Source: Thermoproteota archaeon (GTDB taxonomy: Archaea > Korarchaeota > Korarchaeia > Korarchaeales > Korarchaeaceae). From it: a stretch of 64,000 nucleotides of DNA. Where the stretch lies: NCBI GenBank assembly GCA_027491915.1, contig JAOZGC010000001.1, positions 64,001-128,000 of the forward strand. The letters are read 5' to 3'. Shown here in pieces: positions 21,481-34,884 of this stretch. The first letter of the stretch is position 1. Each line of letters opens with the position of its first letter. A program made the translations under genes and the position numbers. The notes beneath the pieces are model-generated. The model ran no database searches. It was given only the letters and a program-made list of their open reading frames with translations, and was not told the origin of the DNA.

Positions 21481-22208
21481 GCTCCCCGGCGCGGCCCGAG
21501 AGGATGGTGAGGCTGAGGAGGGCCGCGGCCAGGAAGGCGGTCCACGCCCTCCTGGCGTGCCTCTCCCTGGCGCCTGCCGCCCTACCCGGTCTGTTCCCCC
21601 TCCCGACCCAGTCCGTCTACGCCGCGGCCCTGGTGGTCGCGGCCTGGCTCAACGCCGTGAAGATATGGGGACCTCCCCCACTCATCGCCAGGATATCCCG
21701 AATCCCCGTCCTGGAGGCCGCTTTCAGGCCCATCAACCTGGCGGCCGCCCGACTCTGGGGCGCTCTGACCGACCTGGAGAGGGAGTACGAGCGCAGGCTC
21801 GGCTGGGTCGGCCTCCTGAATGGGATAATCGGAGTGTCTGCGGCCTACCTCATCTCGGGGGAGTACTCGGCCTACGGGGTTGCGGCGATGGCCACGGTGG
21901 ACGTGTTCTCCACGCTGGTGGGGGAGGCCCTGCCGTCGGCGGAGCTCCCGGCCTCCAGGGGGGCCACCGTCTGCGGAACCGCGGCCGGCGCCCTGTCCTA
22001 CATGGCGCTCCTCCTGACCGTGCTCCCCCCCGCCGAGTCCCTGGTGCTGGCCGCGGCGGCCGGGATAATCGAGGCCTACGGGATCGAGGACAACGTGGAC
22101 GTGCCCCTGCTGACCTCGATCCTGGCCGCGGTCGCCGGCTACCCTCCCCCGCGCCCCCTGAGCAGCGACTTTATGAACCTCTTCAGCATCACGACGTCCT
22201 CCACGTAG
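21477..22208 (+). CDS. Dolichol/phytol kinase-like (SEC59/VTE5, CTP-dependent) membrane protein
   Basis: RKAVH, D-x3-TLVG, IEAYGIEDN; multi-TM. Confidence 0.7.
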   Translation: MSSPARPERMVRLRRAAARKAVHALLACLSLAPAALPGLFPLPTQSVYAAALVVAAWLNAVKIWGPPPLIARISRIPVLEAAFRPINLAAARLWGALTDLEREYERRLGWVGLLNGIIGVSAAYLISGEYSAYGVAAMATVDVFSTLVGEALPSAELPASRGATVCGTAAGALSYMALLLTVLPPAESLVLAAAAGIIEAYGIEDNVDVPLLTSILAAVAGYPPPRPLSSDFMNLFSITTSST

Positions 22209-23302
22209 ACGAACTCTCCGGGGGCGTGGATGTTGTTCTCCTCCCTTATCGCCCCGAAGGCCACCGTCGGTATCCCCATCCTCGCGAAGAAGTACCCGTC
22301 GTTTCCCCCCAGCTCCGCGGCCACTGCGGATCTACCGGTGGCCGACTCCATGGCGGCCAGCGCCTCGGCCACGAACGGGTGGTCCGGGTCGGTGCGCCAC
22401 CCCTCGTTTATGGGCTCCAGTATCTCCACCTCCGCCTCCACCCCCAGGCAGGCCGCCAGCGAGGCCACCCTGGACCTGAGCTCCTCTATGGCCTTGCTCG
22501 GATCCTCCCCGGGGATCAGCCTCATGTCGAACCCGGCCTCGGCCGAGTCCGGTATGACGTTGTGCTTCCCGCCGGCCCTCAGTACGGTGACCGTGAACCT
22601 ACCCCACAGCCTCCCGACCGGGCTCCCGGGGGGGCTCGGGAGGTCGGAGAGCCTGGCGGCCCTGAACTCGGAGAACCTCTCCAACCCCTCGACCATCCTG
22701 GCCAGGGACCACACCGGGTTCCGCGCCCTGTGGGGGTACCCGGCGTGTCCCCCCCTCCCCCTGACCCTGACCCAGCCGTGCACCACCCCGCTAGCCCCGA
22801 CGCTCAGGTAGTCGGCAGCGGCGTCCACCACGACGACCCTGTCCCCGGGGACCCCGGCCTCCACCACCTCCTCTATCCCCCTCCCCCCAACCTCCTCGTC
22901 CCCCGTCACCACCACCACGGGGTTGTACCTGAGTCTCTCCCCCCTGAGCTCCCTGACAGCGGCCAGCGATGCCGCCACAGCCGACTTGTCGTCGGCCGCC
23001 CCCCTTCCGTATATCCTGCCGTCCACCTCCACCGGCTCGAAGGGATCTAACTCCATACCCGAGACCCTCCAGGGACCGCGGGCCGGGACCACGTCGTAGT
23101 GGCTGACCAGGGCCAGGTCCATCTCGGCGCCGGCGTCCAGCCTGGCCACCACGTTTGGGACCTCCCTGCCGACTATCTCCGCCTCCATCCCCAGGGAGGC
23201 GGCCTCGTCCATCACCAGCCTGGCGGCCTCCCCGTAGTTGCTCTTCCTCAGGGAGTCTGTGTTCAGGGAGACCAGCCTCTTCAGCAGCTCCACCTCGTAC
23301 AT
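22139..23302 (-). CDS. M20/ArgE/DapE-family metallopeptidase
   Basis: SHYDVVP, GRGAADDK, DEEVG, NVIP, NIHAPGE. Confidence 0.92.
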   Translation of the reverse strand: MYEVELLKRLVSLNTDSLRKSNYGEAARLVMDEAASLGMEAEIVGREVPNVVARLDAGAEMDLALVSHYDVVPARGPWRVSGMELDPFEPVEVDGRIYGRGAADDKSAVAASLAAVRELRGERLRYNPVVVVTGDEEVGGRGIEEVVEAGVPGDRVVVVDAAADYLSVGASGVVHGWVRVRGRGGHAGYPHRARNPVWSLARMVEGLERFSEFRAARLSDLPSPPGSPVGRLWGRFTVTVLRAGGKHNVIPDSAEAGFDMRLIPGEDPSKAIEELRSRVASLAACLGVEAEVEILEPINEGWRTDPDHPFVAEALAAMESATGRSAVAAELGGNDGYFFARMGIPTVAFGAIREENNIHAPGEFVYVEDVVMLKRFIKSLLRGRGGG

Positions 23303-23361: not shown

Positions 23362-24561
23362 ATGAGGGTGCTCCTGATAGGCGCCGGCAGGATGGCCTCG
23401 GCCATAGCGGCCTACCTCTCGGACCCCAGGTTCGGGAGGCCAGCCGATGCCATCACCGTGGCGGACGTCCGTCGAGACGCGGCCTCCTCGCTTGTGGAGC
23501 GGCTGGAAGGGAGGGGCGCGTCCTCCTCCCTATCCTGGATCGTGCTGGACGCCTCCGACAGGGACGCCGTGGCGGAGGCCGCCGCGGCGGCCGGCGCGGA
23601 CGTCGTGATAGACGCCGCCCTGTTCGACACCATTCCGGCGTCCACGCTCGGGGCCCTGGACGCGGGCGCCAACTACCTCGACCTGGGGAGCGACAGGGAG
23701 ACCCTCCAGTGGCAGATATCCCTCTCCCGGGATTTCGCGGAGCGGGGGACTGTCGCCGTCCCCGGGATGGGCGGGTCGCCCGGGCTCATAAACGTCCTGG
23801 CCAGGGCCGCGGCGGACAGGCTGGACTCGGTCTCCGAGATGCGCATGAGGGAGGGGTGGAGGGACTTCGTCGACTACGACTCGCTGGGGGTGCCCCTGCC
23901 GGTCCCCTACTCCCTGGAGACCATACTGGACGAGTTCGAGTCCGAGGCCGAGGTGTTCTCGGACGGCGACGTCGTCAAGGTCCCGGGCATGTCGGGCCGG
24001 GAGGTCTGCGAGATGCCCGACCCGGTGGGGAGGGTGGAGTGCTACTACGTGGACCACCAGGAGGTCTGGAGCGTCGGAGTCTCCCTCTCTGACAGGGGGC
24101 TGAGGAGGGTGGACTACAAGCTCTCATTCCCTAGGGAGCTGTACGAGAAGTACCGCCTCCTCTCCGACCTCGGGTACGGGTCGGCGGAGCCCCTAGATCT
24201 GGACGGTCAAATATCCCCGCTGAGGCTGTTGGGGGTCTTGGTGCGGGAAAATCTGTCTGGAAAGAACTGGAGGCCGGACGACGTCGATCTGATGATGGTC
24301 AGGGCCATAGGCAAGTCGGCGGGACGAGACTCCAGGGTTGACGCCTTCGCGGAGGCGCGCTCGCTGGAGGATCCGCCCATCTCGTCTCACGCCGTTATGG
24401 TGGCGGCCCCGGCTTCCACGGCCGCCAGGTGGATAGTCGATGGGAGGCTGGACGCCCGGGGGGTCCTGCTCCCCGAGGTGTTCTTCGATCCAGGCGAGTT
24501 CCTGGGTGAGGTGTCCTCCCTGGGAATCAGGGTGTGGGTGGACGGCCCGACCTCTTTTTAA
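23362..24561 (+). CDS. Saccharopine dehydrogenase / carboxy(nor)spermidine synthase-like oxidoreductase
   Basis: LIGAGRMA Rossmann motif, NYLDL, GMGGSPGLINVLA, YVDHQEV, GVLLPE. Confidence 0.8.
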   Translation: MRVLLIGAGRMASAIAAYLSDPRFGRPADAITVADVRRDAASSLVERLEGRGASSSLSWIVLDASDRDAVAEAAAAAGADVVIDAALFDTIPASTLGALDAGANYLDLGSDRETLQWQISLSRDFAERGTVAVPGMGGSPGLINVLARAAADRLDSVSEMRMREGWRDFVDYDSLGVPLPVPYSLETILDEFESEAEVFSDGDVVKVPGMSGREVCEMPDPVGRVECYYVDHQEVWSVGVSLSDRGLRRVDYKLSFPRELYEKYRLLSDLGYGSAEPLDLDGQISPLRLLGVLVRENLSGKNWRPDDVDLMMVRAIGKSAGRDSRVDAFAEARSLEDPPISSHAVMVAAPASTAARWIVDGRLDARGVLLPEVFFDPGEFLGEVSSLGIRVWVDGPTSF

Positions 24562-24586
24562 TTGGAATCCGGGATCTCGGTTGGGA

Positions 24587-25321
24587 ATGCCGACCAAGAG
24601 GCTGTACTACCTAGATCAGTACATCAAGAGCTTCGAGTCCAGGGTCGAGGCCGTCTCGGAGGAGGGGGATCTTATGGGGGTCGTCCTTGAGGAGACGGCC
24701 TTCTACCCCAGGGGGGGAGGTCAGCCCTCCGACACGGGGACCCTGGCAGGGGGATCCTGGAAACTCAGAGTCGAGTCCGTGGAGGAGAGGGGGGGCGGAG
24801 AGATCGTCCATCTGGGACGGGCGGACGGCCGCCCCTCCGAGGGGGACCCGGTCCGGGGGACCCTGGATTGGGACAGGAGGTACAGGCTCATGAGGATGCA
24901 CACGGCGGCCCACATACTGATGGCCTCCGTCTCCAGGGTGTTCGGCAGGGTCGTGGACGTGGTGGGCAGCGGGCTCTCGGTGGAGAGGGGCAGGATGGAT
25001 TTCGCCGAGAGGATCAGGGCCAATCACGTGCCCGACATAGAGGCCGCGGCCAACAAGATAATCGCATCGGACGTCGAGGTCAGGGCCGCCTTCTTCCCCA
25101 GGGAGGGGGCTCGGGAGATCCTGGCCAAGTACGGGAGGAACCTGGGAGCGCCCCAGGCCGGGATGGAGACCGTCAGGATAGTGGAGATATCCGGAGTGGA
25201 CGCCGACCCCTGCGGGGGCACCCACGTCTCCAGGACCTCCGAGGTCGGGTCCCTCAGGATACTGAAGAGGGACAACAAGGGGAGGGGAGTCACGAGGCTG
25301 GTGTTCTCGGTTGAGCCCTGA
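24587..25321 (+). CDS. alaX: Alanyl-tRNA editing protein AlaX-M
   Basis: TAFYPRGGGQPSDTG, MRMHTAAH (HxxxH), CGGTH. Confidence 0.93.
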   Translation: MPTKRLYYLDQYIKSFESRVEAVSEEGDLMGVVLEETAFYPRGGGQPSDTGTLAGGSWKLRVESVEERGGGEIVHLGRADGRPSEGDPVRGTLDWDRRYRLMRMHTAAHILMASVSRVFGRVVDVVGSGLSVERGRMDFAERIRANHVPDIEAAANKIIASDVEVRAAFFPREGAREILAKYGRNLGAPQAGMETVRIVEISGVDADPCGGTHVSRTSEVGSLRILKRDNKGRGVTRLVFSVEP

Positions 25322-27674
25322 GAGGCTCCCCACCATCAGGGAGGTCAGGATAAGGAACTTCAAGTCCTTCAGATCCCTGAACCTCCCCCTCCTACCCGGG
25401 ATCACCGGCATAACCGGGCCCAACGGCAGCGGGAAGTCGAACCTGCTCGAGTCCATAGCCTTCGTCCTGGGCCACAGGGGGAGGGGCCTCAGGGCCGCCC
25501 GCCTCGGCAATCTGGTCAGCAGGGGGGCGAGACGGGCCGAGGTCACCCTGAAGATAGCGACTCGTTCCGGCGAGAGGACCGTGAGCAGGGGGATCAGGGG
25601 GTCAACCGGCTTCTACAGGATCGGGGGGAGGATCGTCCCCAGGTACAGGGCCGAGCTCCTCCTGAGGGAGCTCGGGTACAGGGCGGACTGGTACACCTAC
25701 GTGGCCCAGGGGACCGTCACCAGGCTGGTCGAGATGAGCCCCAGGGAGAGGGTCGGGATAGTGGAGGAGATAAGCGGCGTCAGGGAGTTCGAGAGGAGGA
25801 GGGCCGAGATACTGACCAGGCTCGGGGAGGTGGAGGGGAGGCTGGAGGTGATCAGGGCCAGGCTCTCTGAGAGGGAGAGGTTCCTCAGCTCCCTGGCCCG
25901 GAGGATAGAACTGATGAGGCGCAGGGAGGAGCTGGAGAGGAGGGCCCTCTCCCTGAGGAAGGCCGTCCTGCTGGAGGAGCTGAACCGCGTCAGGGGGAGG
26001 ATATCCGAGCTGCGCCTGGGATTGGAGGGTGGGGGGGAGGCGGGGGGAGATTCTAATCCCGACGTGGAAATGGAGGCCGTTGAGGCGGCCATAAGGGAGG
26101 CCGAGCGCAGGCTGAGGGAGCTGGAATCGGACGAACACATGAGGATCGCGAGGGAGGCCGAGTCCGTCAGACTGAGGATTAGGTCCAAGAGGAGAGAGCT
26201 ATCAGCCGTGGAGAGGGAGATCGAGGCGATCAGGGCCACCCTATCCTCGGTGGGGGAGCTTGGTGTTCCCAGGGAGATATCCGGGGTCGAGGGAGTGTTG
26301 GGAACCGTGTCTCAGCTGATAAAACCGCTGCCCGGTTACGAGCGAGCCTACAGGGCGGCCGCGGGTGGGAGGGCGGGGGACGTGGTGGTCGAGAGCCTGG
26401 ACCTGGCGCTGAGCCTCCGGGGGGCGCTCAGGAGGTCCGGGCGGAGGGTGAGGCTGATCCCGCTCGACGTGGTCAGGCCGGGCCGACCGCCCTCCCCGCC
26501 TGGGTACTCCCTCGGCCTCATGATAGAGCACCTATCTTACGATCCAGACCTGGACGGTGTCGCCAGGGCGGTCTTCGGGGGGACCGTGGTGGTGAGGGAC
26601 CTGAGGGACGTTTCCAGGGGGGACATAGGGAGGGCCAGGTTCGTCAGCCTGGACGGGGACCTCATGGAGAGGGACGGGAGCGTCATAGTCACCCCCGACA
26701 GGTCTGGGGTCAGGGGAAGGCTGGAGAGGCTGGACGAGTTGGAGGCCGAGAGGGAGAGGCTGCGATCGGAGTTGGCGGATCTGGAGAGGAGGGTCTCTTC
26801 CCTTCCAGACGAGTCCTCCGTCCGCAGGATGGCGGAGGAGCTGAGGGGGGTCCGATCCTCCCTGTCGAGGCTGAGGGAGCGCAAGGAGAGGATCCTCCGC
26901 CTGAGACTCGAGGAGGCCAGGAGGAGGGCCGCCGTCTCAGAAGAGCTGGGGAGGCTGGAGGCGAGGGAGGAGCAGATCCTTCGTGAGCTCGACTCCCTTG
27001 GGGACGTGGAACCGGCCGACCCCGGGTGGGGCGACCCTTCATCTGCCCTGGCGGCCGTCAGGGCCGAGCTGAGGTCGCTGCCCGCCCCCGATCCCGGGCT
27101 CGAGGAAGAGTACGGTCGGGAGCTCGAGAAGGTCAAGCTCGCGAGGGCCGAGGCGGAGGAGATAGAGAGGGAGAGAATGGAGGTGCTGGAGGCGCTCAGG
27201 AGGGCAACGGGGGAGAGGGACGGGGCTCTGGCGGACGCCGTGGGTAGGCTGGCGGAGGCCTTCTCCAAGATCTACGGGGAGGTGTCCGGCGGATCCGCCA
27301 GGATGTGGCTGAGCGGGAGCTGGCCCGACGCTGCCCTGGAGATAGAGGTGATCCCCCCAGGGAAGCCCCCGACGAGGCTCGAGTCGCTGTCCGGCGGGGA
27401 GAAATCGGTGGCCGCCCTGGCCCTCGTGGCGGCCGTGGCCGCGGTCAGGCCATCCCCCATATACCTGTTCGACGAGGCCGACGCCATGCTCGACGCGGAG
27501 AACTGCCGGAGGTTCGCCAAGATACTGCGGATCCTGGCCTACTCTGGATCCCAGGTCCTCGTGGTGTCCTTGAAGAGGGAGACCCTGTCGGAGGCCGACA
27601 GGATTCTCGGCGTGACCGACTCGGGCGGGAGATCGAGGGTGGTCGGGGTTGACCTCTCCAGGTACCCGGGATGA
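25311..27674 (+). CDS. smc: Smc-family chromosome ATPase, short-armed (787 aa) with hinge
   Basis: NFKSF, Walker A GPNGSGKSN, R-loop LRA, Q-loop VAQG, hinge GVLGTVSQLI...LIPLD...FGGTVVV...VSLDG, signature LSGGEKS, Walker B/D-loop LFDEADAMLD, VVSLK. Confidence 0.92.
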   Translation: MSPERLPTIREVRIRNFKSFRSLNLPLLPGITGITGPNGSGKSNLLESIAFVLGHRGRGLRAARLGNLVSRGARRAEVTLKIATRSGERTVSRGIRGSTGFYRIGGRIVPRYRAELLLRELGYRADWYTYVAQGTVTRLVEMSPRERVGIVEEISGVREFERRRAEILTRLGEVEGRLEVIRARLSERERFLSSLARRIELMRRREELERRALSLRKAVLLEELNRVRGRISELRLGLEGGGEAGGDSNPDVEMEAVEAAIREAERRLRELESDEHMRIAREAESVRLRIRSKRRELSAVEREIEAIRATLSSVGELGVPREISGVEGVLGTVSQLIKPLPGYERAYRAAAGGRAGDVVVESLDLALSLRGALRRSGRRVRLIPLDVVRPGRPPSPPGYSLGLMIEHLSYDPDLDGVARAVFGGTVVVRDLRDVSRGDIGRARFVSLDGDLMERDGSVIVTPDRSGVRGRLERLDELEAERERLRSELADLERRVSSLPDESSVRRMAEELRGVRSSLSRLRERKERILRLRLEEARRRAAVSEELGRLEAREEQILRELDSLGDVEPADPGWGDPSSALAAVRAELRSLPAPDPGLEEEYGRELEKVKLARAEAEEIERERMEVLEALRRATGERDGALADAVGRLAEAFSKIYGEVSGGSARMWLSGSWPDAALEIEVIPPGKPPTRLESLSGGEKSVAALALVAAVAAVRPSPIYLFDEADAMLDAENCRRFAKILRILAYSGSQVLVVSLKRETLSEADRILGVTDSGGRSRVVGVDLSRYPG

Positions 27675-28251
27675 GTCGAAGTCCCGCGTCGAGGAGGCCC
27701 TCAGGGAGTTCTCCGTCAGGGGGGACCTCGAGGTCCTCGCGCTCCGCCTGCTGCTGATAAGCGAGGATCTGGCCTCCAGGGCGGCTAGGCTCCTCAGGTC
27801 GATCCTCCCTGGGGAGGGAACCAGACCCCGGGGTTCCGGGGGGAGGGCCGGCGGGACCGCCCGGAACGTGCCCCCCCTCACCCCCAGGATGGGGCGGATC
27901 GTGATGATACCCCCCTCGGCCCGGGAGTTCGAAGTCGAGAGAGATTGGGCATCCAGCCTGGTGGGCCGGGCCCGGGAGGCTGTCAGGGTCGTGGCGGCCC
28001 TGGCCGCCGATCTCCTCAGGGAGATCGAGCGGCTCAGGGAGAGGATATCGACCCTCCTCAGGGAGGGCAGGGGGACCTTCACCCTGAGGGAGCTGGCGAG
28101 GGACAGGGAGGAGGCGTCGGCCTACCTTATATCCCTCCTCCTGCTGGAGAGGGAGGGGGAGGTCCTACTCTCTCAGGACAGGATCTACGGGGACCTGGTG
28201 GTGAGGGTGAGTCCCGTTGGCGGGGGAGGTGGACGCGGCCCTCCTGGTTGA
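27649..28251 (+). CDS. scpA: Kleisin ScpA (compact, divergent)
   Basis: N-helices DLEVLALRLLLISEDLASRAARLL; C-terminal wHTH FTLRELA...YLISLLLLEREGEVLLSQDRIYGDLVV; lies between smc and scpB. Confidence 0.82.
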   Translation: MTSPGTRDESKSRVEEALREFSVRGDLEVLALRLLLISEDLASRAARLLRSILPGEGTRPRGSGGRAGGTARNVPPLTPRMGRIVMIPPSAREFEVERDWASSLVGRAREAVRVVAALAADLLREIERLRERISTLLREGRGTFTLRELARDREEASAYLISLLLLEREGEVLLSQDRIYGDLVVRVSPVGGGGGRGPPG

Positions 28252-28705
28252 GGCGGCCCTCTTCGCGGCCGGGAGGCCCATGTCCGTCGAGGAGATATCT
28301 GAGGCGACCGGCCTGGAGGTCGAGGAGGTCGAGTCGGTCATTCCGAGGATCTCCGAGTCCCTGAAGGGGAGGCCCTACTTCCTCCAGGAGAGGCCCGACG
28401 GCCTGTTCATGACCCTGAGGCCGGAGTACAGGGAGGTGGCGGAACGCGTCTCGGCCAGGCCGGAGCTCTCCAGGGCCGAGCTCAGAACCCTCGCCGTGAT
28501 ATCGGCCCTCGGCCCGCTCAGCCTATCTAGGTTGGCCGAGCTGAGGGGTTCCTCGGCCTACGCGCACGTCAAGAAGTTGAGGAAGAAGGGGTTGATCTAC
28601 GTCAAGAGGGCCGGGCGGGGAAGGGTGGTCGGCGTCACGAGGGACTTTCGGAGGTTCTTCGAGCCCCCGGGACCCGAGCTTATTAAGGGAGCCGGGGGGG
28701 AGTGA
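28217..28705 (+). CDS. scpB: Kite subunit ScpB
   Basis: VEAALFAAGRPMS, LSRAELRTLAVI, LRGSSAYAHVKKL...GLI, VTRDFRRFF; alternative GTG start at 28229. Confidence 0.92.
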   Translation: MAGEVDAALLVEAALFAAGRPMSVEEISEATGLEVEEVESVIPRISESLKGRPYFLQERPDGLFMTLRPEYREVAERVSARPELSRAELRTLAVISALGPLSLSRLAELRGSSAYAHVKKLRKKGLIYVKRAGRGRVVGVTRDFRRFFEPPGPELIKGAGGE

Positions 28706-28708
28706 AGG

Positions 28709-30613
28709 GTGCCCCCGATGGCGGTGGGGGAGAGGGTCTCGAGGGAGCTGCGGGAGAGGGCCCTCGCCGAGGACGTCGACCAGGTCCTGAAGGCCCTAGA
28801 GAGGGAGGGGCTGCTGGACGCGTTCGAGGGCTATCTCCTGGCCCGGGACATATCCCTCTCCCTGTGCGGGGGCCTCGTGAGCATAGGGTCTCCGACCGCC
28901 AAGGAGATCAGGGCCAAGTTGGAGTCCCTGGGGGGGGAGGCGGCCTCACTCCTCTCCACCCTGGCCAGATCCAGCGGGAAGGGCGGATTCCCCTTCTCCG
29001 GCGGGATCCCGTCGGAGCTGGTCTCCGAGGCGGATCGGGCCCTTGACTCCCTGATCTCAGAGCTGGAGGGGGCGACCTACCTGCTCATCTCCGAGGCGCT
29101 CCGACTGGTGGGACCGACCAGGGAGTCGGTGCTGCGCACGGCCAGGTCACTCCTTGATTCCCTCGTGGGGGGTACCAAGCTTGGAGAACGGTGGGAGAGG
29201 ATACCCGATCTGATATCGGCTCTGGAACAGCTTTCCCCCCCCTCGGAGGGCTCGCCGCCCGGAGACGTCAGAGACTACGTCTCGCTGGTGGCAGAGGTCA
29301 AGGCCGCGGTATCGGAGGTGGAGGAGAGGCTCTCAAGATCGAAGGAGGCGACGGAGAGGCTAGGCCTCGCGCTGACCGAGCTCGAGTCTACCATAGAGGA
29401 GATCAGAAGGGAGATCTCCGCCGCCGAGGAGGAGGGGATCAGGGCCGAGTTCATGGCCGAGACGATCGAGTGGGCTCTGGTCAGGGCCAAGAGACTCAGG
29501 AGGAGGTGCCAACCCGGGGACGTGGAGTGCGCCGAGAAGGCGGCCGAGGACGCCGTCAGGCTGGGGAACAGGATAAGGGAGATGGCGGAGTCGGGGATAA
29601 GGCAGCTCAGGGAACTTACTGATCTAATGAGGGAGGTGACAGGACTCATTCCGGAGGCGGAGGCCGCGGCCGAGGCCCTGGGGAGGGAGCTCTCCTCCGA
29701 CTCGCTCAGGCTGATAGTCAGGGACGCCGCGGCCGAGCTCTCCGGATACATGGGTGGAATGGTCATTAAGGATCAGGATGAGATGGAGAACTTCCGAACC
29801 AGGCTCCTCGAGATGAGGGACGTCCTGAGATCACTGATCTCCCTAAGGAGAGCCTCGGAGGAGGCCGGCGGCCTGGAAGAGATGGCCTCCAGAATAGCAG
29901 ATGGGCTGTCCTCCTTGGCCATAATAAGGGCGGTGCTCGCCAAGTCGGAAGAAGATCCGAGCATACTGACGAGAGAAGCCCTCCCAGCACTCAAAGAATT
30001 TGGGGAGAAGATATCGGAGTATAGAGAGGCCCAGAGGGACGCTGAGAGGTTGTATCCCTACTGGAAGAGGTACCTGCTGGATCTGGCAAGGGAGCGCGGC
30101 GGGCGGGTGAGCGCGGGAGAGCTGACCAGGATCCCCCAGAGGTGGAGGCCGTGGTTCCTCAGGAGGGTGGAGGAAGAGGGTATTGCCTCGGTCTCTGAGG
30201 GTATTGTGGCCGTGACGATGCCGCAAGAGGGTCCGCCCAGAGCCAGCGTGGGGGCTGGCCCGACGTTCGAGAGGGAGGCCCCGGCCGCCGCGAAGCCCGC
30301 TGGACGGGCTCCAGAGATCATCGGATCGGCCGGGGCGGAGGCCCCTCCCCCGGAGGCCCCTCCCCCGGAGGCCCCTTCCCCCCGCACTACTTCCCTCTCC
30401 CCCTCCCCAACTCCGCCCAGGCCGAGGTCCGCCCCCGCAGGGATTCGAGGCAGGATGGGTGGTAGGGCGGGGATGAGATCGTCGATCTCACCGGCCCACG
30501 CGCTCATTCGACTGGCCCTTGAGCTGCTCTCTTCCGAGACCGGGGCCAACGTCCCGCCCGCCCAACCAGACGCGGAGGACTTGAAGCGTAGGATAGCGGC
30601 CCACCTCATCTGA
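28709..30613 (+). CDS. Uncharacterised alpha-helical/coiled-coil protein with internal small domain and Pro-rich tail
   Basis: 634 aa, E/R/L/A-rich helices; aromatic motif YPYWKRYL...IPQRWRPWFL; EAPPP repeats. Confidence 0.8.
   Translation: MPPMAVGERVSRELRERALAEDVDQVLKALEREGLLDAFEGYLLARDISLSLCGGLVSIGSPTAKEIRAKLESLGGEAASLLSTLARSSGKGGFPFSGGIPSELVSEADRALDSLISELEGATYLLISEALRLVGPTRESVLRTARSLLDSLVGGTKLGERWERIPDLISALEQLSPPSEGSPPGDVRDYVSLVAEVKAAVSEVEERLSRSKEATERLGLALTELESTIEEIRREISAAEEEGIRAEFMAETIEWALVRAKRLRRRCQPGDVECAEKAAEDAVRLGNRIREMAESGIRQLRELTDLMREVTGLIPEAEAAAEALGRELSSDSLRLIVRDAAAELSGYMGGMVIKDQDEMENFRTRLLEMRDVLRSLISLRRASEEAGGLEEMASRIADGLSSLAIIRAVLAKSEEDPSILTREALPALKEFGEKISEYREAQRDAERLYPYWKRYLLDLARERGGRVSAGELTRIPQRWRPWFLRRVEEEGIASVSEGIVAVTMPQEGPPRASVGAGPTFEREAPAAAKPAGRAPEIIGSAGAEAPPPEAPPPEAPSPRTTSLSPSPTPPRPRSAPAGIRGRMGGRAGMRSSISPAHALIRLALELLSSETGANVPPAQPDAEDLKRRIAAHLI
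30336..30375 (+). repeat. 15-bp tandem repeat (cggaggcccctcccc) x about 2.7 encoding EAPPP
   Basis: cggaggcccctcccc cggaggcccctcccc ggaggcccct. Confidence 0.85.
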
Positions 30614-30712
30614 AATTGTCCCCCACGGCGGCGGGGAGGACCGCGACTTCAGGAATGGACAAACGGTCCATATGGTTTATTAACCGGGCGGGGGGCGCTC
30701 TCTCGATAGGAC

Positions 30713-32107
30713 GTGATAGTGGTAAATGCCGTGCTGTCCGAGAGCGAGCTGTCCCAAGAACTCAGATATCTCCTCCTGAAGCTCAGAGAGAGACATCCCG
30801 ACTCCGTCTCCGTCTACTTCTACGACGTATCCAGCATAAAGAAAAAGAAGGAGGTGAAGAACCTCCCGGAGATCAAGATAGACGGGCTCTCGCTCTCGGG
30901 AGAGGAGGCCCTGGCAGCGGCCGAGACGCTGCTGGACCTGCTCGAGTCGGGCGTCTCCCCCACGCCTCCTCTCATACTCCGGAAGATCAGGGAGCGGAGG
31001 CTGGCAATAATAAGCGAGGCGAAGGAGGCCCTGAGGAGGCTGGAAGAGGTAACCTCCGTCATACCCCCCGAGAGGAGGACCGTGATGGAGAGGTACAGGG
31101 AGGAGCTCCAGGCCATATCCACGGGAATGTTCGGATACAGCAAGAGGTCTATAGAGAGGGCCAGAGAGGAGCTGGATCGGATAAACTACCTCATAAGGAA
31201 GCTGGCCTCGGAGGGGGTAGAGGACAGGCTATCCAGCAGGATAGCCCTGATACACAGGGGGGTGTTCGAGGCCCTGAGCGAGGCAGAGGAGATCTCCCGC
31301 CTGCTGGGCGCGGAGGTGAGGTCGGAGATCCTGGAGTCGCTGCGAGGGGCCCTGGCCGAACTCAGGGAGGGCCCGAAGAACGTGGGCGATATAGCCGAGG
31401 CCGCCCTGGGCAAGCTCGGGGAGGTGGTCGAATTGGAGCGGCGGCGGATACAGTGGCTGGAGAGGGTGCAGGGCCGACTGACGAAGGTCAGGAGCAGGGT
31501 GGGCGGTTGGTTGGCCTCGGCCAGCTCCCTGGACGCCGGGATCGGAATCAACTGGTTCACCAAGATGAGCGTCGCCGTCCTGACCAGGCTGTTCGTTAGG
31601 CTGGCCTTCCCGTCGGGAGACTGGCTAGCCTCCCTCAGGGAGATAGACGACATGATAAATCAGCTCGACCTGATCCCCCTGATCTCCGAGACCGTCGACT
31701 CCGCAGCCCAGTCCGGGATAGACGCCGGAATGAGGGCGGTGGAGACCCTCAGGCTCGCCGTCAGGAGGATGGACCCCGAGAAGGCGACCCTCGATGACAT
31801 GAATTCTATGATAGAGGAGATCAGGGCGGCCGCCGCCGGGGCCGCCGGGGGCCGCGGGGCGCCCGTCTCCCTGGAGATCAAGATCGACGAGATCTCGGAG
31901 AAGGTGTCCCGGCTGATAGACACGGCCTCCCGGCTGGTCAAACTGGGGGTCGAGGCCGACCGGGAGCTGGCGGAACTGCTCGAGGTGGAGGGCTCCCTGA
32001 AGGTCCTCAGGAGGAGGCTCTCCGCGGGGGAGGACGTGTCTGAGGAGCTGGACGAAGTGGAGCGCCGGGTGGAGTCGATAGGTCGATCCGTGAAGGCAAA
32101 GGTGTGA
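30713..32107 (+). CDS. Uncharacterised protein: Cys-less thioredoxin-like N-domain plus helical/coiled-coil body
   Basis: 464 aa; VNAVLSESELSQEL...VYFYDV...VKNLPEIKIDG pattern; heptad-rich remainder; TTTATTAA about 30 nt upstream. Confidence 0.75.
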   Translation: MIVVNAVLSESELSQELRYLLLKLRERHPDSVSVYFYDVSSIKKKKEVKNLPEIKIDGLSLSGEEALAAAETLLDLLESGVSPTPPLILRKIRERRLAIISEAKEALRRLEEVTSVIPPERRTVMERYREELQAISTGMFGYSKRSIERAREELDRINYLIRKLASEGVEDRLSSRIALIHRGVFEALSEAEEISRLLGAEVRSEILESLRGALAELREGPKNVGDIAEAALGKLGEVVELERRRIQWLERVQGRLTKVRSRVGGWLASASSLDAGIGINWFTKMSVAVLTRLFVRLAFPSGDWLASLREIDDMINQLDLIPLISETVDSAAQSGIDAGMRAVETLRLAVRRMDPEKATLDDMNSMIEEIRAAAAGAAGGRGAPVSLEIKIDEISEKVSRLIDTASRLVKLGVEADRELAELLEVEGSLKVLRRRLSAGEDVSEELDEVERRVESIGRSVKAKV

Positions 32108-32164
32108 GCCAACATTCTTAAGGGTGCGGGGGCCGGCGGCGACCGTCGACGGGGGCCTCGGGAG

Positions 32165-33358
32165 ATGAGATGGTTCGGGGTCGGTCTGGGGGGCGCGGGC
32201 GGCGCCATAATGGACGCCACATATGAAGTCTTCTCCTCGAGGTCCCCGGAGGGCCTCATAGGGGCCGTCGTCTTCAACACGGCCGAGTCGGACAGGGCCA
32301 AGCTCAGGCACCTCAAGGAGTCCTTCTACCTGTTCGGAGAGTTCGGGGGGGCCGGAGTCGGCGCCCGGTGGAAGGACTCCATGAGGGCCATGGGATCCCC
32401 GGAAGCCAAAGAGATGGTCAGGTCGGTGCTCGAGCGGAGGGGGATCTCAGGGGCCACGGGGGTGCTCCTGTCGACCGCCCTCGGGGGAGGGACGGGAAGC
32501 GGATCGACCCCCCTGGTGGCCAGGTACGTCAGGGAGATCCTGGGCGGAGAATCCTCCGTCCAGCCTATAGTCTCGGTGGGGGTCCTCCCCTTCAGGTACC
32601 CCCGGGAGTCCATGAGGTTCGCCTACAACAGCGCCGTGTCTCTCTCCAACCTCCTCTCCCCGACCGACTCGGTCTTCCTGTTGGACAACGACGTGGTCTG
32701 GAATAGGGTGGTTTCAGATGAACCGAACCTCAGCGACGAGGAGGCGCTTCAGAGGATAAACAGGCTGGCCGGACTGTTCCTGAGGGCCATATCCGTCGCC
32801 TCCTCCAACCCAATGATGGGCGGCTTCAAGACCACCCTCGACTCCCAGGACCTCAGGTCGATGGTGAGGTTCTTCGAGGCCTCCATATGCGTCCCGTGCT
32901 ACGCCTCCGTCAGGGTGGAGGCGGTTGAGGGGTCCCTGGAGTTCCTGATGGAGCTGGCCCTGGGGGAGGGCTGCTTCGCCGAGGTGGAGCCCAAGACCGC
33001 CCTGAAGGCGGCCTTCGTCATAAGGGGGCCGGAGAGGTACCTGAACGTCAACTCCCTCTTCGAGGCCAAGAGGGTCCTGGCCGAGAGGATAGCGGGCATA
33101 GACGTCAGGGAGGGGCTGGCCGCGGCGCCGGAGGATGAGAAGAGATTCGAGATCTCCGTGCTGCTCGTGGAGCCCAGGGTCCCGAGGATAGATGAGATAC
33201 TCGAGCAGGCGGAGCTCTACTACAACGTCCACGAGGACGAGTTGACCAAGATGGAGGACACCCCAAGGGACGAGTTCGAGGGATACCTGGAGAGGCTGAG
33301 GTCCCACCTGGAGAAGGCCGAGGAGTCCAGGAGGGGATTGGAGGCTGGGTCGGGCTGA
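32165..33358 (+). CDS. FtsZ/tubulin-superfamily GTPase, CetZ-like
   Basis: GLGGAGG (T1), NTAESD, GAGVG (T3), LGGGTGSG signature (T4), VLPF, LLDND, T7-like LDSQDL, C-terminal VPRIDEI helix. Confidence 0.9.
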   Translation: MRWFGVGLGGAGGAIMDATYEVFSSRSPEGLIGAVVFNTAESDRAKLRHLKESFYLFGEFGGAGVGARWKDSMRAMGSPEAKEMVRSVLERRGISGATGVLLSTALGGGTGSGSTPLVARYVREILGGESSVQPIVSVGVLPFRYPRESMRFAYNSAVSLSNLLSPTDSVFLLDNDVVWNRVVSDEPNLSDEEALQRINRLAGLFLRAISVASSNPMMGGFKTTLDSQDLRSMVRFFEASICVPCYASVRVEAVEGSLEFLMELALGEGCFAEVEPKTALKAAFVIRGPERYLNVNSLFEAKRVLAERIAGIDVREGLAAAPEDEKRFEISVLLVEPRVPRIDEILEQAELYYNVHEDELTKMEDTPRDEFEGYLERLRSHLEKAEESRRGLEAGSG

Positions 33359-33417
33359 GCCCGGAAGTCCCATCGTATATTTTTTTAACTATCGCCGCCG
33401 CCCGCCGCGGTGGTCCC

Positions 33418-34884
33418 GTGTCCGACCTGGAGAGGTTCTTCTCCCCGAGATCGATAGCCGTGATAGGGGCTTCCAGGGATCCCGGGTCGGTTGGTCACGA
33501 GCTCCTGAGGATACTGGCGGAGAACAGGCTGAGGGGGGGATTTGATTGGAGGCTCTACGCAGTGAACCCCAGGGCCGACTCCGACATACTGGGGGTGCCC
33601 ACCTACAGATCCGTCAACGAAGTCCCCGGGGACGTCGACCTTGGCGTGATAGTGACCCCGGCCAGGTACGTGCCGTCTATAGTTGAAGAGTGCGGGCTCA
33701 GGGGAATAAAGAACCTCATAGTGATAAGCGGGGGCTTCGCCGAGGTGGGAGAGGAGGGTAAGAGGCTTCAGGACGCCCTGATCCGGGCGGCCAGGCGGAG
33801 GGGAATGAGGATCCTAGGTCCGAACTGCGTCGGGGTGGTGGTCCCCAGGACCGGGGTGGACACGGCCTTCCTCCCGGTCGAGAAGCCCTTCGGAGACGGG
33901 AGCCTGGAATCCCTCCCCCGACCGCCCCCCGGGAACATATCCCTCATATCCCAGTCGGGCGCCTTCGGCGTGGCATGCCTGGACTACATGGCGGGTGAGG
34001 GTCTGGGGCTGGCCAAGTTCGTCAGCTACGGAAACAAGGCGGACGTGGACGAGGTGGACCTGATAGGGTACCTGGCCGACGATCCCGAGACCCGGGTGAT
34101 AATAGTCTACGCCGAATCCATAGAGAGGGGGAGGGAGTTCTTGGAGGCCGTCCGGAGGGCGGTGGCCAAGAAACCGGTGGTCGTGCTCAAGGCGGGGAGG
34201 ACGTCGGCCGGGGCGAGGGCCGCAAGCTCCCACACGGCCGCCCTCGCCGGATCCGACGAGGTGTACGAGGCGGCCCTGAGGCAGGCCGGCGCCATCAGGG
34301 TATACGAGGTCGAGGAACTGTTCGACGCGACCAAGGCCCTCTCCATGCAGCCGCCGGCCCGGGGGAGGAGGGTGGCAGTCCTCACAGACGGCGGGGGGGC
34401 CGGCGTGATGGCCACGGACGAGTTGGAGTCCAGAGGGGCATCCGTTCCGAGACTATCCGGGCGGACCCTGGCCGAGCTCGAGAGGATGAGGGAGGAGGGG
34501 GAGATCCCGCCCATATCCGGCATATCCAACCCGGTCGACCTGACCGGCAGCGCCACGGACGAGCACTTCGTCAGATCACTCGAGGTCCTACTGGGGGATC
34601 CCGGGATAGACGGCGTGGTGGTGCTCGCCCTCCACCACGTCCCTGGGGTCACGGACGAACTTCCCTCCAAGCTCGCCCGGGTCGCGGCCGACGGGGGGAA
34701 GCCCGTGGTCGCCTGCGACATAGGACAGGGGAGTTATTCGGTCGCCTTCAGGGACCTGTTCGACCGCGCCGGGATACCCGCCTACCCGACCCCTGAGAGG
34801 GCCGCCAGGGCCATGGTGCACCTGATACGCTACGGGGAGGCCCTGGCCAGGGTCTCCCCCCTCAGGTCCTCACCGACGCCCTAG
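33418..34884 (+). CDS. acdA: ADP-forming acetate/acyl-CoA ligase alpha subunit
   Basis: IAVIGAS, GPNCVG, SQSGA, GNKADV, SHTAAL (phospho-His), NPVDLTG. Confidence 0.92.
   Translation: MSDLERFFSPRSIAVIGASRDPGSVGHELLRILAENRLRGGFDWRLYAVNPRADSDILGVPTYRSVNEVPGDVDLGVIVTPARYVPSIVEECGLRGIKNLIVISGGFAEVGEEGKRLQDALIRAARRRGMRILGPNCVGVVVPRTGVDTAFLPVEKPFGDGSLESLPRPPPGNISLISQSGAFGVACLDYMAGEGLGLAKFVSYGNKADVDEVDLIGYLADDPETRVIIVYAESIERGREFLEAVRRAVAKKPVVVLKAGRTSAGARAASSHTAALAGSDEVYEAALRQAGAIRVYEVEELFDATKALSMQPPARGRRVAVLTDGGGAGVMATDELESRGASVPRLSGRTLAELERMREEGEIPPISGISNPVDLTGSATDEHFVRSLEVLLGDPGIDGVVVLALHHVPGVTDELPSKLARVAADGGKPVVACDIGQGSYSVAFRDLFDRAGIPAYPTPERAARAMVHLIRYGEALARVSPLRSSPTP

Follow-up and report, generated by a model that had tools for sequence, protein, structure and literature searches.

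A Korarchaeal CetZ-like tubulin and its predicted helical partner next to a short-armed condensin operon

Six consecutive plus-strand genes of a Korarchaeal genome, encoding a small SMC protein, a kleisin-like protein, a ScpB subunit, two helical proteins and a tubulin-superfamily GTPase, raise the question of whether condensin and a cytoskeletal filament are joined here in one machine. The genes lie in a 64,000-nucleotide stretch (hereafter the window) of the Thermoproteota archaeon assembly GCA_027491915.1 (contig JAOZGC010000001.1, positions 64,001 to 128,000 of the forward strand; coordinates below are window positions). The original prediction had taken them as a single condensin-cytoskeleton system, in which both helical proteins serve as adaptors between a compact condensin and a GTP-driven filament. 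The analysis presented here favours an ordinary condensin operon next to the genes of a lineage-specific CetZ-like filament and of a helical partner that would bind it laterally, a reading to which we assign a probability of roughly 0.6. It is the pair formed by the helical protein P0004 and the GTPase P0006, and not a condensin-cytoskeleton machine, that deserves attention. The six genes are as follows (lengths in amino acids, aa).

25311–27674, plus strand: smc (P0001), 787 aa, a short-armed SMC.
27649–28251, plus strand: scpA-like gene (P0002), 200 aa, a divergent short kleisin.
28217–28705, plus strand: scpB (P0003), 162 aa, a kite subunit.
28709–30613, plus strand: P0004, 634 aa, founder of a Korarchaeal all-helical family (HEL) and predicted binder of P0006.
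30713–32107, plus strand: P0005, 464 aa, an orphan helical protein.
32165–33358, plus strand: P0006, 397 aa, a divergent CetZ-like tubulin-superfamily GTPase.

The open reading frame (ORF) map agrees with the layout first described: all six frames are found at these coordinates, with open translations of the lengths given. The smc and scpA frames overlap by 26 nucleotides (nt) and scpA and scpB by 35 nt; 3 nt separate scpB from P0004, and gaps of 99 nt (P0004 to P0005) and 57 nt (P0005 to P0006) follow, all of them computed from the longest ORFs. The in-frame G+C content at third codon positions (GC3) is 0.80–0.90 for all six genes. The genome measures 1.12 Mb in 4 contigs and is 91% complete, and the named proteins related to those of the window come from Korarchaeota. 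Its genus is called g1 in what follows, the nearest genus g2, and the other genera of the same Korarchaeal family g3, g4 and g5; the window proteins are nearest to those of g2 (61–63% identity for the tubulin and 41–44% for the SMC, against 35–54% and 36–41% for the other genera). Families were assigned with Pfam and NCBIfam models and their cut-offs. Synteny was read from the ORFs mapped in regions extracted around P0006 orthologs and around SMC orthologs. The scan for P0006 orthologs took one genome per species and used a tubulin alignment with a clade-specific pattern, which confines it to the Korarchaeal clade, and the search for short-SMC orthologs covered 26 genomes of the same Korarchaeal family.

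Sequence and modelled fold agree in describing P0006 as a divergent CetZ-like tubulin, closer to the solved CetZ proteins than to FtsZ or tubulin, and on this point the original prediction of a CetZ/tubulin-like GTPase is confirmed. The Tubulin domain (PF00091) scores 61.8 bits against a cut-off of 33 bits, and both a GGGTGSG motif (residues 107–113) and an acidic T7-type segment (residues 222–229) are in place. The top solved relatives are CetZ1 (4B46) and CetZ2 (4B45) of Haloferax volcanii, as named in the figure legends of PMC9856176 and the PDB titles, and the CetZ of Methanosaeta thermophila (3ZID), with E values of 3.1e-16, 2e-8 and 7.9e-12, respectively, for the single sequence and of 9e-40, 2e-30 and 3e-26 for the family profile. 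With the same profile the best FtsZ reached 5.7e-21 and TubZ (4xcq) 6.6e-11, the latter placing P0006 outside the TubZ type when set against the 9e-40 of CetZ1. Membership in FtsZ is not supported either, since FtsZ_C gave no match on P0006 and TIGR00065 only 36.4 bits against a cut-off of 295.2. The AlphaFold2 model (predicted local distance difference test, pLDDT, 91.9; predicted template modelling score, pTM, 0.92) retrieved CetZ chains in the top four positions of a Foldseek search (template modelling scores 0.91, 0.88 and 0.80 by target length, identity 23–24%). P0006 shares with CetZ1, CetZ2 and the M. thermophila CetZ the GGGTGSG motif, the acidic T7-type segment and the fold, but differs from them in its low identity and in a CetZ_C domain (PF21011) that stays below the cut-off (18.7 against 21.6 bits). 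Among the 14 aligned relatives of P0006, one of which is a Hydrothermarchaeota protein, 10 match CetZ_C at E <= 0.01 (best 3.4e-21).

The position of P0006 was further examined in a quick tree of 44 tubulin-family rows (support by the Shimodaira–Hasegawa-like approximate likelihood ratio test, SH-aLRT; three long branches flagged; no named CetZ sequences among the rows). A branch with 100% support divides the rows, and the Korarchaeal clade (13 rows, support 99) falls opposite FtsZ, together with proteins that bear CetZ_C. Five tandem paralogs from a g4 genome and the two other paralogs of the window's genome, both FtsZ-type genes on contig C3, are on the FtsZ side. In contrast to CetZ proper, P0006 belongs to a separate clade seen in Korarchaeia only, the species-level scan having returned 14 loci with a P0006 ortholog, all of them Korarchaeal. 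Passages of PMC9856176 state that CetZ was confidently found only in Euryarchaeota, and a passage of PMC10606840 that it had not been found in the TACK archaea, so that the CetZ-like clade of Korarchaeia falls in a phylum from which, by these accounts, CetZ was not yet known.

The acidic T7-type segment is kept in the P0006 orthologs of g1, g2 and g5 and replaced in those of g3 (L018 3436–4623, L019 3688–4875 and L021 1725–2909). The altered g3 genes still overlap the P0004-type partner gene by 4 base pairs (bp). From their sequence, these g3 proteins may be hydrolysis-dead polymers or caps.

The second member of the pair, P0004, matches no Pfam or NCBIfam family. A word-index homology search returned the protein itself and nothing else, a kind of search that misses real relatives, as was shown by an exhaustive profile search over 1.84 billion representatives, in which 32 proteins were found at E <= 0.001. 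Ten syntenic orthologs align over the full length and carry an invariant YPxW ... IPxxWR signature, and Trp452, Pro476 and Trp479 (W452, P476 and W479) are invariant in all 27 aligned members of the family. A broader profile found matches in 33 of 43 genomes of a phylum sample (g2 5/5, g3 4/5, g4 18/21, g5 4/4). Outside the Korarchaeal family the same profile gave one weak match of 47 residues among 8 genomes, and five further genomes (two of the same phylum, already sampled, and three of other phyla) yielded two matches only, with E values of 0.002–0.007. The window's genome has P0004 as its single member. As judged from these sequence searches, P0004 is a member of a helical family without known relative that is almost confined to one Korarchaeal family.

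The AlphaFold2 model of P0004 (mean pLDDT 77, high through residue 500) is composed of long helical hairpins or bundles arranged as repeats (residues 1–462), a small helix-strand domain (466–502) that carries the YPxW and IPxxWR motifs, a disordered Pro-rich linker (506–594) and two short C-terminal helices. The order of its elements suggests that the small domain is winged-helix-like. None of the 259 Foldseek matches with E <= 10 reached E <= 0.001, the top ones being generic helical bundles; a profile search of the PDB returned only coiled-coil or designed helical proteins, and the best score in the ESM Atlas (0.78) was below the usable range. At the extreme C-terminus of the g2 proteins lies a basic helix of strong amphipathic character (hydrophobic moment 0.67–0.81, as compared with an internal 95th percentile of 0.63 for P0004). 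This feature is less clear in the tail of the window's P0004 (0.52).

The genes of the two proteins travel together. A P0004-type gene is adjacent to the tubulin gene in all four g2 loci, in all three g3 loci (where the two genes overlap by 4 bp) and in two of the three g5 loci. Two of the 14 loci of the species-level scan are cut by contig ends, and in 10 of the 12 informative ones the P0006 ortholog is immediately preceded by a P0004-type gene. Four genera in all keep the pairing.

A complex prediction for the helical protein and the GTPase, which had been proposed beforehand as a check, was carried out with residues 20–634 of P0004 (24-row alignment) and residues 1–383 of P0006 (14 rows). 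The complex scored 0.75, 0.73 and 0.76, and the best of three controls 0.01 (range 0.00–0.01). In calibration 58 of 80 solved complexes passed the same mark, as did 2 of 110 mismatched pairs; these rates are approximate here since custom alignments were used. The runs share at least 26% of the contacts and the pLDDT of the partner is at least 88. The modelling supports binding between P0004 and P0006, and since no relative of P0004 has been solved, the prediction is unlikely to reproduce a complex already known.

A closer inspection of the modelled interface located the confident contacts of P0004 at residue 397 and at residues 437–455 and 474–479, which include the invariant Trp452, Pro476 and Trp479. 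On P0006 they fall at residues 249–268 and 326, the first of these stretches comprising the end of a strand (240–250), a short helix (251–254) and a further helix (258–268). From the model this stretch would be the S7–H9 region with the M-loop, on the lateral face of the tubulin. Residues 249–268 vary little within the Korarchaeal clade, and the Hydrothermarchaeota relative has a different sequence there. Two contact positions of P0004 follow the kind of neighbour: position 445 is Ala in 10 of 10 tubulin-paired proteins and Leu or Ile in 5 of 5 proteins paired with a small GTPase, and position 474 is Lys, Arg or Ser in the former (10/10) and Phe in the latter (5/5).

Tubulin-family filaments with dedicated partners are a known kind of system, as in TubZ–TubR(–TubY), BtubAB–BtubC and FtsZ with SepF, ZapA or EzrA, the last being a long helical-repeat protein. 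The pair described here resembles them in that a tubulin-superfamily GTPase stands beside a predicted non-enzymatic binder, which like EzrA is helical. P0004 nevertheless has no sequence or fold likeness to those partners (EzrA appears only at Foldseek rank 45, with an E value of 2.4, and there is no likeness to TubR), and its modelled contact lies on the side of the tubulin body, unlike binding to a C-terminal tail. Pairing and modelling together make it very likely that P0004 is a dedicated partner of the tubulin-family GTPase; the kind of system would be known, whereas this pair and the Korarchaeal CetZ-like clade appear to be new. To our knowledge, no member of the Korarchaeota has been brought into culture. 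A passage of PMC7613921 describes the single member imaged to date as an ultrathin filament, and for both reasons lineage-specific cytoskeletal parts are of interest in this lineage. The passages retrieved from the CetZ literature make no mention of a dedicated gene-paired CetZ partner, and those retrieved by a wider literature search contain no description of a Korarchaeal CetZ-like protein, of its helical partner or of a condensin-tubulin cluster, although supplementary tables (Table S1 of PMC9856176 and the ArvA tables of PMC10927574) may list such genes. A gene-paired partner with a specific, testable interface would give a direct route to the anchoring or regulation of a CetZ-like filament.

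In the reading preferred here, two neighbouring units meet at this locus, a condensin unit comprising alaX (the gene preceding smc), smc, scpA and scpB, and a Korarchaeia-specific cytoskeletal module. P0006 would form a filament by GTP-dependent polymerisation, as should be expected because its GTP-binding and T7-type residues are kept. P0004 would be an elongated all-helical scaffold whose winged-helix-like domain docks, by means of the YPxW and IPxxWR motifs, on the side of the tubulin C-terminal domain, the modelled site being the S7–H9 or M-loop face. Since this face is lateral, P0004 could decorate, bundle or tether protofilaments, and a second target would be reached through the Pro-rich linker and the conserved amphipathic helix at the C-terminus of P0004. 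The module would likely act, as CetZ does, in cell shape, envelope or division. P0005 would be a genus-specific orphan inserted into the pair, and the two units would have become neighbours in the common ancestor of g1 and g2, where read-through co-transcription may occur without being the basis of the module.

MglA/MglB-like pairs consist of a small GTPase and a Roadblock/LC7 partner, and in relatives of the window's genome paralogs of P0004 adjoin a GTPase like that of the archaeal Ras/Arf-like pairs. Of 10 g4 loci, 7 have a Ras/Arf-like GTPase gene immediately after the P0004-type gene (the two overlapping by 4 bp in 5 cases), 2 have it at a distance of one gene, and in the remaining locus no such gene was seen; in four loci with enough flank the pair lies 3–4 kb from FtsZ-like paralogs. 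In g3 a second paralog (590–608 aa) stands next to a Ras-like GTPase gene in divergent orientation at all four loci (L037 5467–8529, L048, L049 and L050), and L037, the one of them that was scanned, has a Roadblock/LC7 gene after that of the GTPase. Eight paralog loci of g5 have neither a GTPase nor a tubulin-family neighbour. The window's genome differs from these cases in that no Ras/Arf-like GTPase was found in it (tblastn, E 1e-4), P0004 being tied to such pairs by family membership only. As the family recurs beside GTPases of two superfamilies, a role as scaffold, effector or regulator suits it.

A closed g4 genome of 1.59 Mb has five FtsZ/tubulin-family paralogs (323–342 aa) in tandem, 3–4 kb from an operon in which the genes of the P0004-family protein and the GTPase overlap by 4 bp (L036 3592–9158 and 12463–14651). 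FtsZ-like paralogs near such a pair recur in four g4 loci (L036, L039, L042 and L044), the count of five in tandem coming from the one locus scanned (L036).

Stathmin, SulA and MciZ are negative regulators that act on tubulin or FtsZ, and P0004 might belong with them, covering the M-loop/H9 face so as to block lateral association or sequester subunits. The modelled interface covers S7–H9, and this is the segment of lateral contact in tubulins, where the M-loop region mediates such contacts (see also the figure legends of PMC9856176). The one-to-one pairing of the genes and their overlap in g3 also suggest stoichiometric production of the two proteins. A scaffold of 500–600 aa with a linker and a conserved C-terminal helix, however, exceeds what a cap or a sequestering peptide needs, and the pairing of paralogs with small GTPases suits a scaffold or an effector; we regard inhibition as an unlikely main function of P0004.

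A bolder extension of the scaffold reading has four parts. The P0004 family would be a Korarchaeia-specific scaffold that connects GTPase switches with filaments; with its invariant winged-helix motif it would hold on to polymers of the tubulin superfamily, namely CetZ-like ones here and the five tandem FtsZ-like ones in g4; its sister copies would be wired to the Ras/Arf-like GTPase and the Roadblock partner; and the placement of the module behind scpB in g1 and g2 would have filament assembly expressed with condensin and perhaps positioned by it. Taken jointly, the four parts make an unlikely proposition. If true, it would amount to a prokaryotic counterpart of the small-GTPase control of the eukaryotic cytoskeleton, and the link of the paralogs to Ras-like GTPases already hints at an archaeal connection between small GTPases and filaments that is relevant to ideas on how the eukaryotic cytoskeleton arose.

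The condensin side of the locus appears, by its sequence, to be the ordinary housekeeping condensin of the lineage. P0001 scores 151.4 bits with SMC_N (cut-off 40) and 70.7 bits with SMC_hinge (cut-off 22.5, residues 327–432), and its Walker A (36–43), signature (693–699) and Walker B (719–725) motifs are intact. It is the sole ORF of the genome above the SMC_N cut-off and its only hinge-bearing SMC; a second SMC-like open frame of 1036 aa, on another contig, is below that cut-off. The full-length model TIGR02169 matches in three stretches with 397.8 bits, below its cut-off of 729.4. From the domain limits the arm is estimated at about 160 residues, where the full-length model expects about 340. 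Natural SMC arm lengths have a minor mode at 163 aa, as given in a passage of Burmann et al. 2017 (PMC5344682), and P0001 is thus best taken as a short-arm variant and not as a non-member. ScpB scores 92.9 bits with SMC_ScpB, above the cut-off, and 60.7 bits with TIGR00281, below it. For P0002 the evidence is a weak match to the C-terminal region of Rad21_Rec8 (E 1.3e-3, 18.4 bits against a cut-off of 22.7), together with matches of 4 of 7 scanned orthologs to SMC_ScpA or Rad21_Rec8 at E <= 0.05, the best of which (24.0 bits, one ortholog) is over the cut-off, and the presence of a gene in the same position between smc and scpB in four genera.

The complex is like prokaryotic Smc-ScpAB in its ABC head motifs, its hinge, its kleisin-like and ScpB genes and their single overlapping operon. 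It differs in arms of about half the usual length (787 aa for the protein, against models of 1165–1181 positions) and in a kleisin that is very short and barely recognisable, both oddities being family-wide and not specific to the locus. Short-SMC orthologs, with open frames of 758–833 aa, were found in 5 of 5 genomes of g2, 10 of 11 of g4 and 4 of 4 of g5, so the protein that the original prediction called a mini-Smc is indeed short, but it is the normal SMC of the family. The exception in g4 is a 99% complete genome (G003) with a weak SMC match only. The adjacency of smc and scpA in three Korarchaeota is already on record in a passage of PMC7055376. The condensin side is mainly of use as a clear case from nature in which a short-armed SMC goes with a minimal kleisin.

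SMCs are short throughout the Korarchaeal family and go with very short (174–200 aa), barely recognisable kleisins, a natural short-arm condensin class. In g3, where a short-SMC ortholog was not found in any of the 5 genomes, a hingeless SMC-like protein of 604–613 aa stands in its place (L076 963–2777). A 3.2-kb contig of one g3 genome, 75% complete, ends in a fragment of a canonical long-armed SMC (L077 3–1808), which may be real or contamination and is unlike the hingeless protein of the other g3 genomes.

Comparison of relatives shows the two blocks to be largely independent. The smc-scpA-scpB triad is present in g1, g2, g4 and g5. Downstream of it lies an unrelated gene in g4 and an opposite-strand gene in g5, where the triad and the P0004/tubulin pair are on different contigs. 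A P0006 ortholog was not found in any of 10 g4 genomes (best E values 1.8e-7 to 5e-4). ScpB was not found in the five g3 genomes, either with a protein query (0/5) or with the Pfam model (0/5); because of the long-SMC piece at a contig end in one of them, the short SMC and ScpB of g3 are recorded as not found and not as absent. The blocks adjoin only in the window's genome and in g2. Separation of the blocks in relatives was what the original prediction had named as speaking against it, and this is largely the picture obtained.

Transcription of the locus was considered from gene spacing and TATA-like boxes only. Besides the six genes, the following features are relevant.

24555–24563: AT run TTTTTAATT, about 25 nt upstream of the alaX ATG.
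24587–25321, plus strand: alaX-like gene for an editing protein with tRNA_SAD and tRNA-synt_2c domains, its frame fixed by GC3.
28680–28686, plus strand: TATA-like AT run TTATTAA, inside the 3' end of scpB and about 25 nt upstream of the P0004 start.
30676–30683, plus strand: TATA-like AT run TTTATTAA, about 30 nt upstream of P0005.
About 32116: TATA-like run TTCTTAA upstream of P0006, weaker than the other runs.
33418–34884, plus strand: ADP-forming acyl-CoA-synthetase-like gene with Succ_CoA_lig and CoA_binding domains, given as context only.

The alaX gene probably starts at the ATG at 24587, and its 3' end overlaps the start of smc by 11 nt, so that the overlap first reported for these two genes is borne out. 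The arrangement suggests that alaX, smc, scpA and scpB are probably one transcription unit with a single promoter near 24555. Three TATA-like boxes had been proposed within the run. Those at 28680 and 30676 are AT-only runs, and the third (near 32116) is weaker. Boxes of this kind likewise lie upstream of the tubulin gene in g2 and of the P0004 orthologs in both g2 and g5. The plus-strand run itself extends beyond the six genes and takes in a saccharopine-dehydrogenase-like gene, alaX and the acyl-CoA-synthetase-like gene, for which reason co-orientation by itself is uninformative. The acyl-CoA-synthetase-like gene, moreover, lies downstream of the tubulin gene in g1, g2 and g3. As this unrelated neighbour is also conserved, conserved adjacency here need not mean shared function.

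Several observations weigh against reading the locus as two separate units of which the second is a CetZ-like filament with its partner. The invariant motif of P0004 is kept also in paralogs without a tubulin neighbour and in g4, which lacks a detected CetZ-like ortholog; part of its conservation must have another cause, maybe structural, since the residues persist where no CetZ-like gene exists. Two Methanodesulfokora genomes carry a CetZ-like gene without an adjacent P0004-type gene. The acidic T7-type residues are gone from the P0006 orthologs of g3, and GTP-driven dynamics would therefore not be universal in the clade. As to the separateness of the units, P0004 begins 3 nt after scpB in the window and 0–66 nt after it in g2, the adjacency of smc-scpAB and P0004 being kept in 5 of 5 g2 genomes, and co-transcription and a functional tie of the two blocks are possible in g1 and g2.

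These last points bear on the original proposal that P0004, perhaps with P0005, acts as a physical bridge between Smc-ScpAB and a GTP-driven CetZ-like filament, in the service of chromosome segregation or of its coupling to division. Apart from the 3-nt gap, the order smc-scpAB-P0004-tubulin is kept in g2 (4 of 4 loci on one contig, and a fifth genome with smc-scpAB-P0004 on one contig), and P0004 is modelled to bind the tubulin through a winged-helix-like domain. The winged helix is a fold class used also by kleisin and kite subunits. Precedents for SMC-like proteins in archaeal shape or cytoskeleton roles are described in a passage of PMC10869688, namely Sph3 with RdfA in Haloferax and arcadin-4 with crenactin, in which, as here, a gene of the SMC superfamily adjoins a cytoskeleton gene. 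Sph3 and arcadin-4 are, however, hingeless SMC-like proteins, whereas P0001 has a hinge, a kleisin and a kite and is the only true SMC of its genome; its scores with the ASRP model (85.4 bits, cut-off 300) and with Rkd4 (27.4 bits, cut-off 860) place it outside ASRP and arcadin-4. A linking role also has to face the separate blocks of g5, a g3 pair in genomes where short SMC and ScpB were not found (0/5), a g4 condensin in genomes where no CetZ-like ortholog was found (10/10), TATA-like boxes upstream of P0004 in three genera, the orphan status of P0005, and alaX and the acyl-CoA-synthetase-like gene as neighbours that are equally tight or equally conserved. The link between condensin and filament was therefore not upheld, and such a coupling, which we consider quite improbable, would be confined to g1 and g2. 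The weakest alternative, that pairing and modelled interface are coincidental and P0004 works with DNA through its winged helix or with a small GTPase, would account for the motif kept in paralogs and genera without a CetZ-like gene and could invoke the 2 of 110 mismatched pairs that reached the same mark and the acyl-CoA-synthetase-like neighbour as an adjacency conserved without functional link, but it is very improbable in view of an adjacency kept in 10 of 12 loci across genera whose tubulins share only 36–63% identity with P0006, of the 4-bp overlap in g3, of scores of 0.75 against 0.00–0.01 for the controls and of an interface that falls on the most conserved residues of both proteins.

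The preferred reading leaves P0005 aside as what its sequence indicates, a genus-specific orphan insert with its own TATA-like box. It looks coding because its in-frame GC3 is high (0.85). No Pfam or NCBIfam family matches it, a word search over 5.8 billion proteins returned only the protein itself (with the caveat given above for such searches), the Atlas search gave no match and no second copy was found in its own genome. The other 35 genomes of the family contain one weak match (E 0.008) and nothing else, and a match is absent from all 10 syntenic loci of relatives, the corresponding gap in g2 being only 57–60 nt. As an orphan without relatives P0005 cannot be a conserved adaptor. The adaptor role first given to both helical proteins is in this way kept for P0004 with the GTPase and dropped for P0005 and for any connection to condensin. 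That P0004 and P0005 might be paralogs was considered and rejected as unproven (BLASTP E 0.40, hhalign probability 26%).

Some distant members of the P0004 family carry additional regions. Two of them (P0040 and P0042) have an extra small N-terminal domain of alpha/beta appearance, and two others (P0052 and P0054) a long N-terminal region with hydrophobic, membrane-like segments. All four keep IPxxWR; an unchanged YPxW was seen in P0054 alone, the remaining three having an altered form. A resemblance of the N-terminal domain of P0040 and P0042 to the start of P0005 was not retained, the BLASTP matches having E values of only 0.28 and 0.007 over short stretches.

Two further observations concern the surroundings of the six genes. 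Between the tubulin and the acyl-CoA-synthetase-like genes there is an AT-only run of 13 nt (33376–33388), the longest in the region, which from its composition and position is likely a strong promoter or terminator element for the downstream gene. Upstream, in the interval 21557–23302, a plus-strand ORF of 497 aa without family overlaps a minus-strand M20 peptidase gene (22139–23302) and is probably a spurious high-GC shadow ORF.

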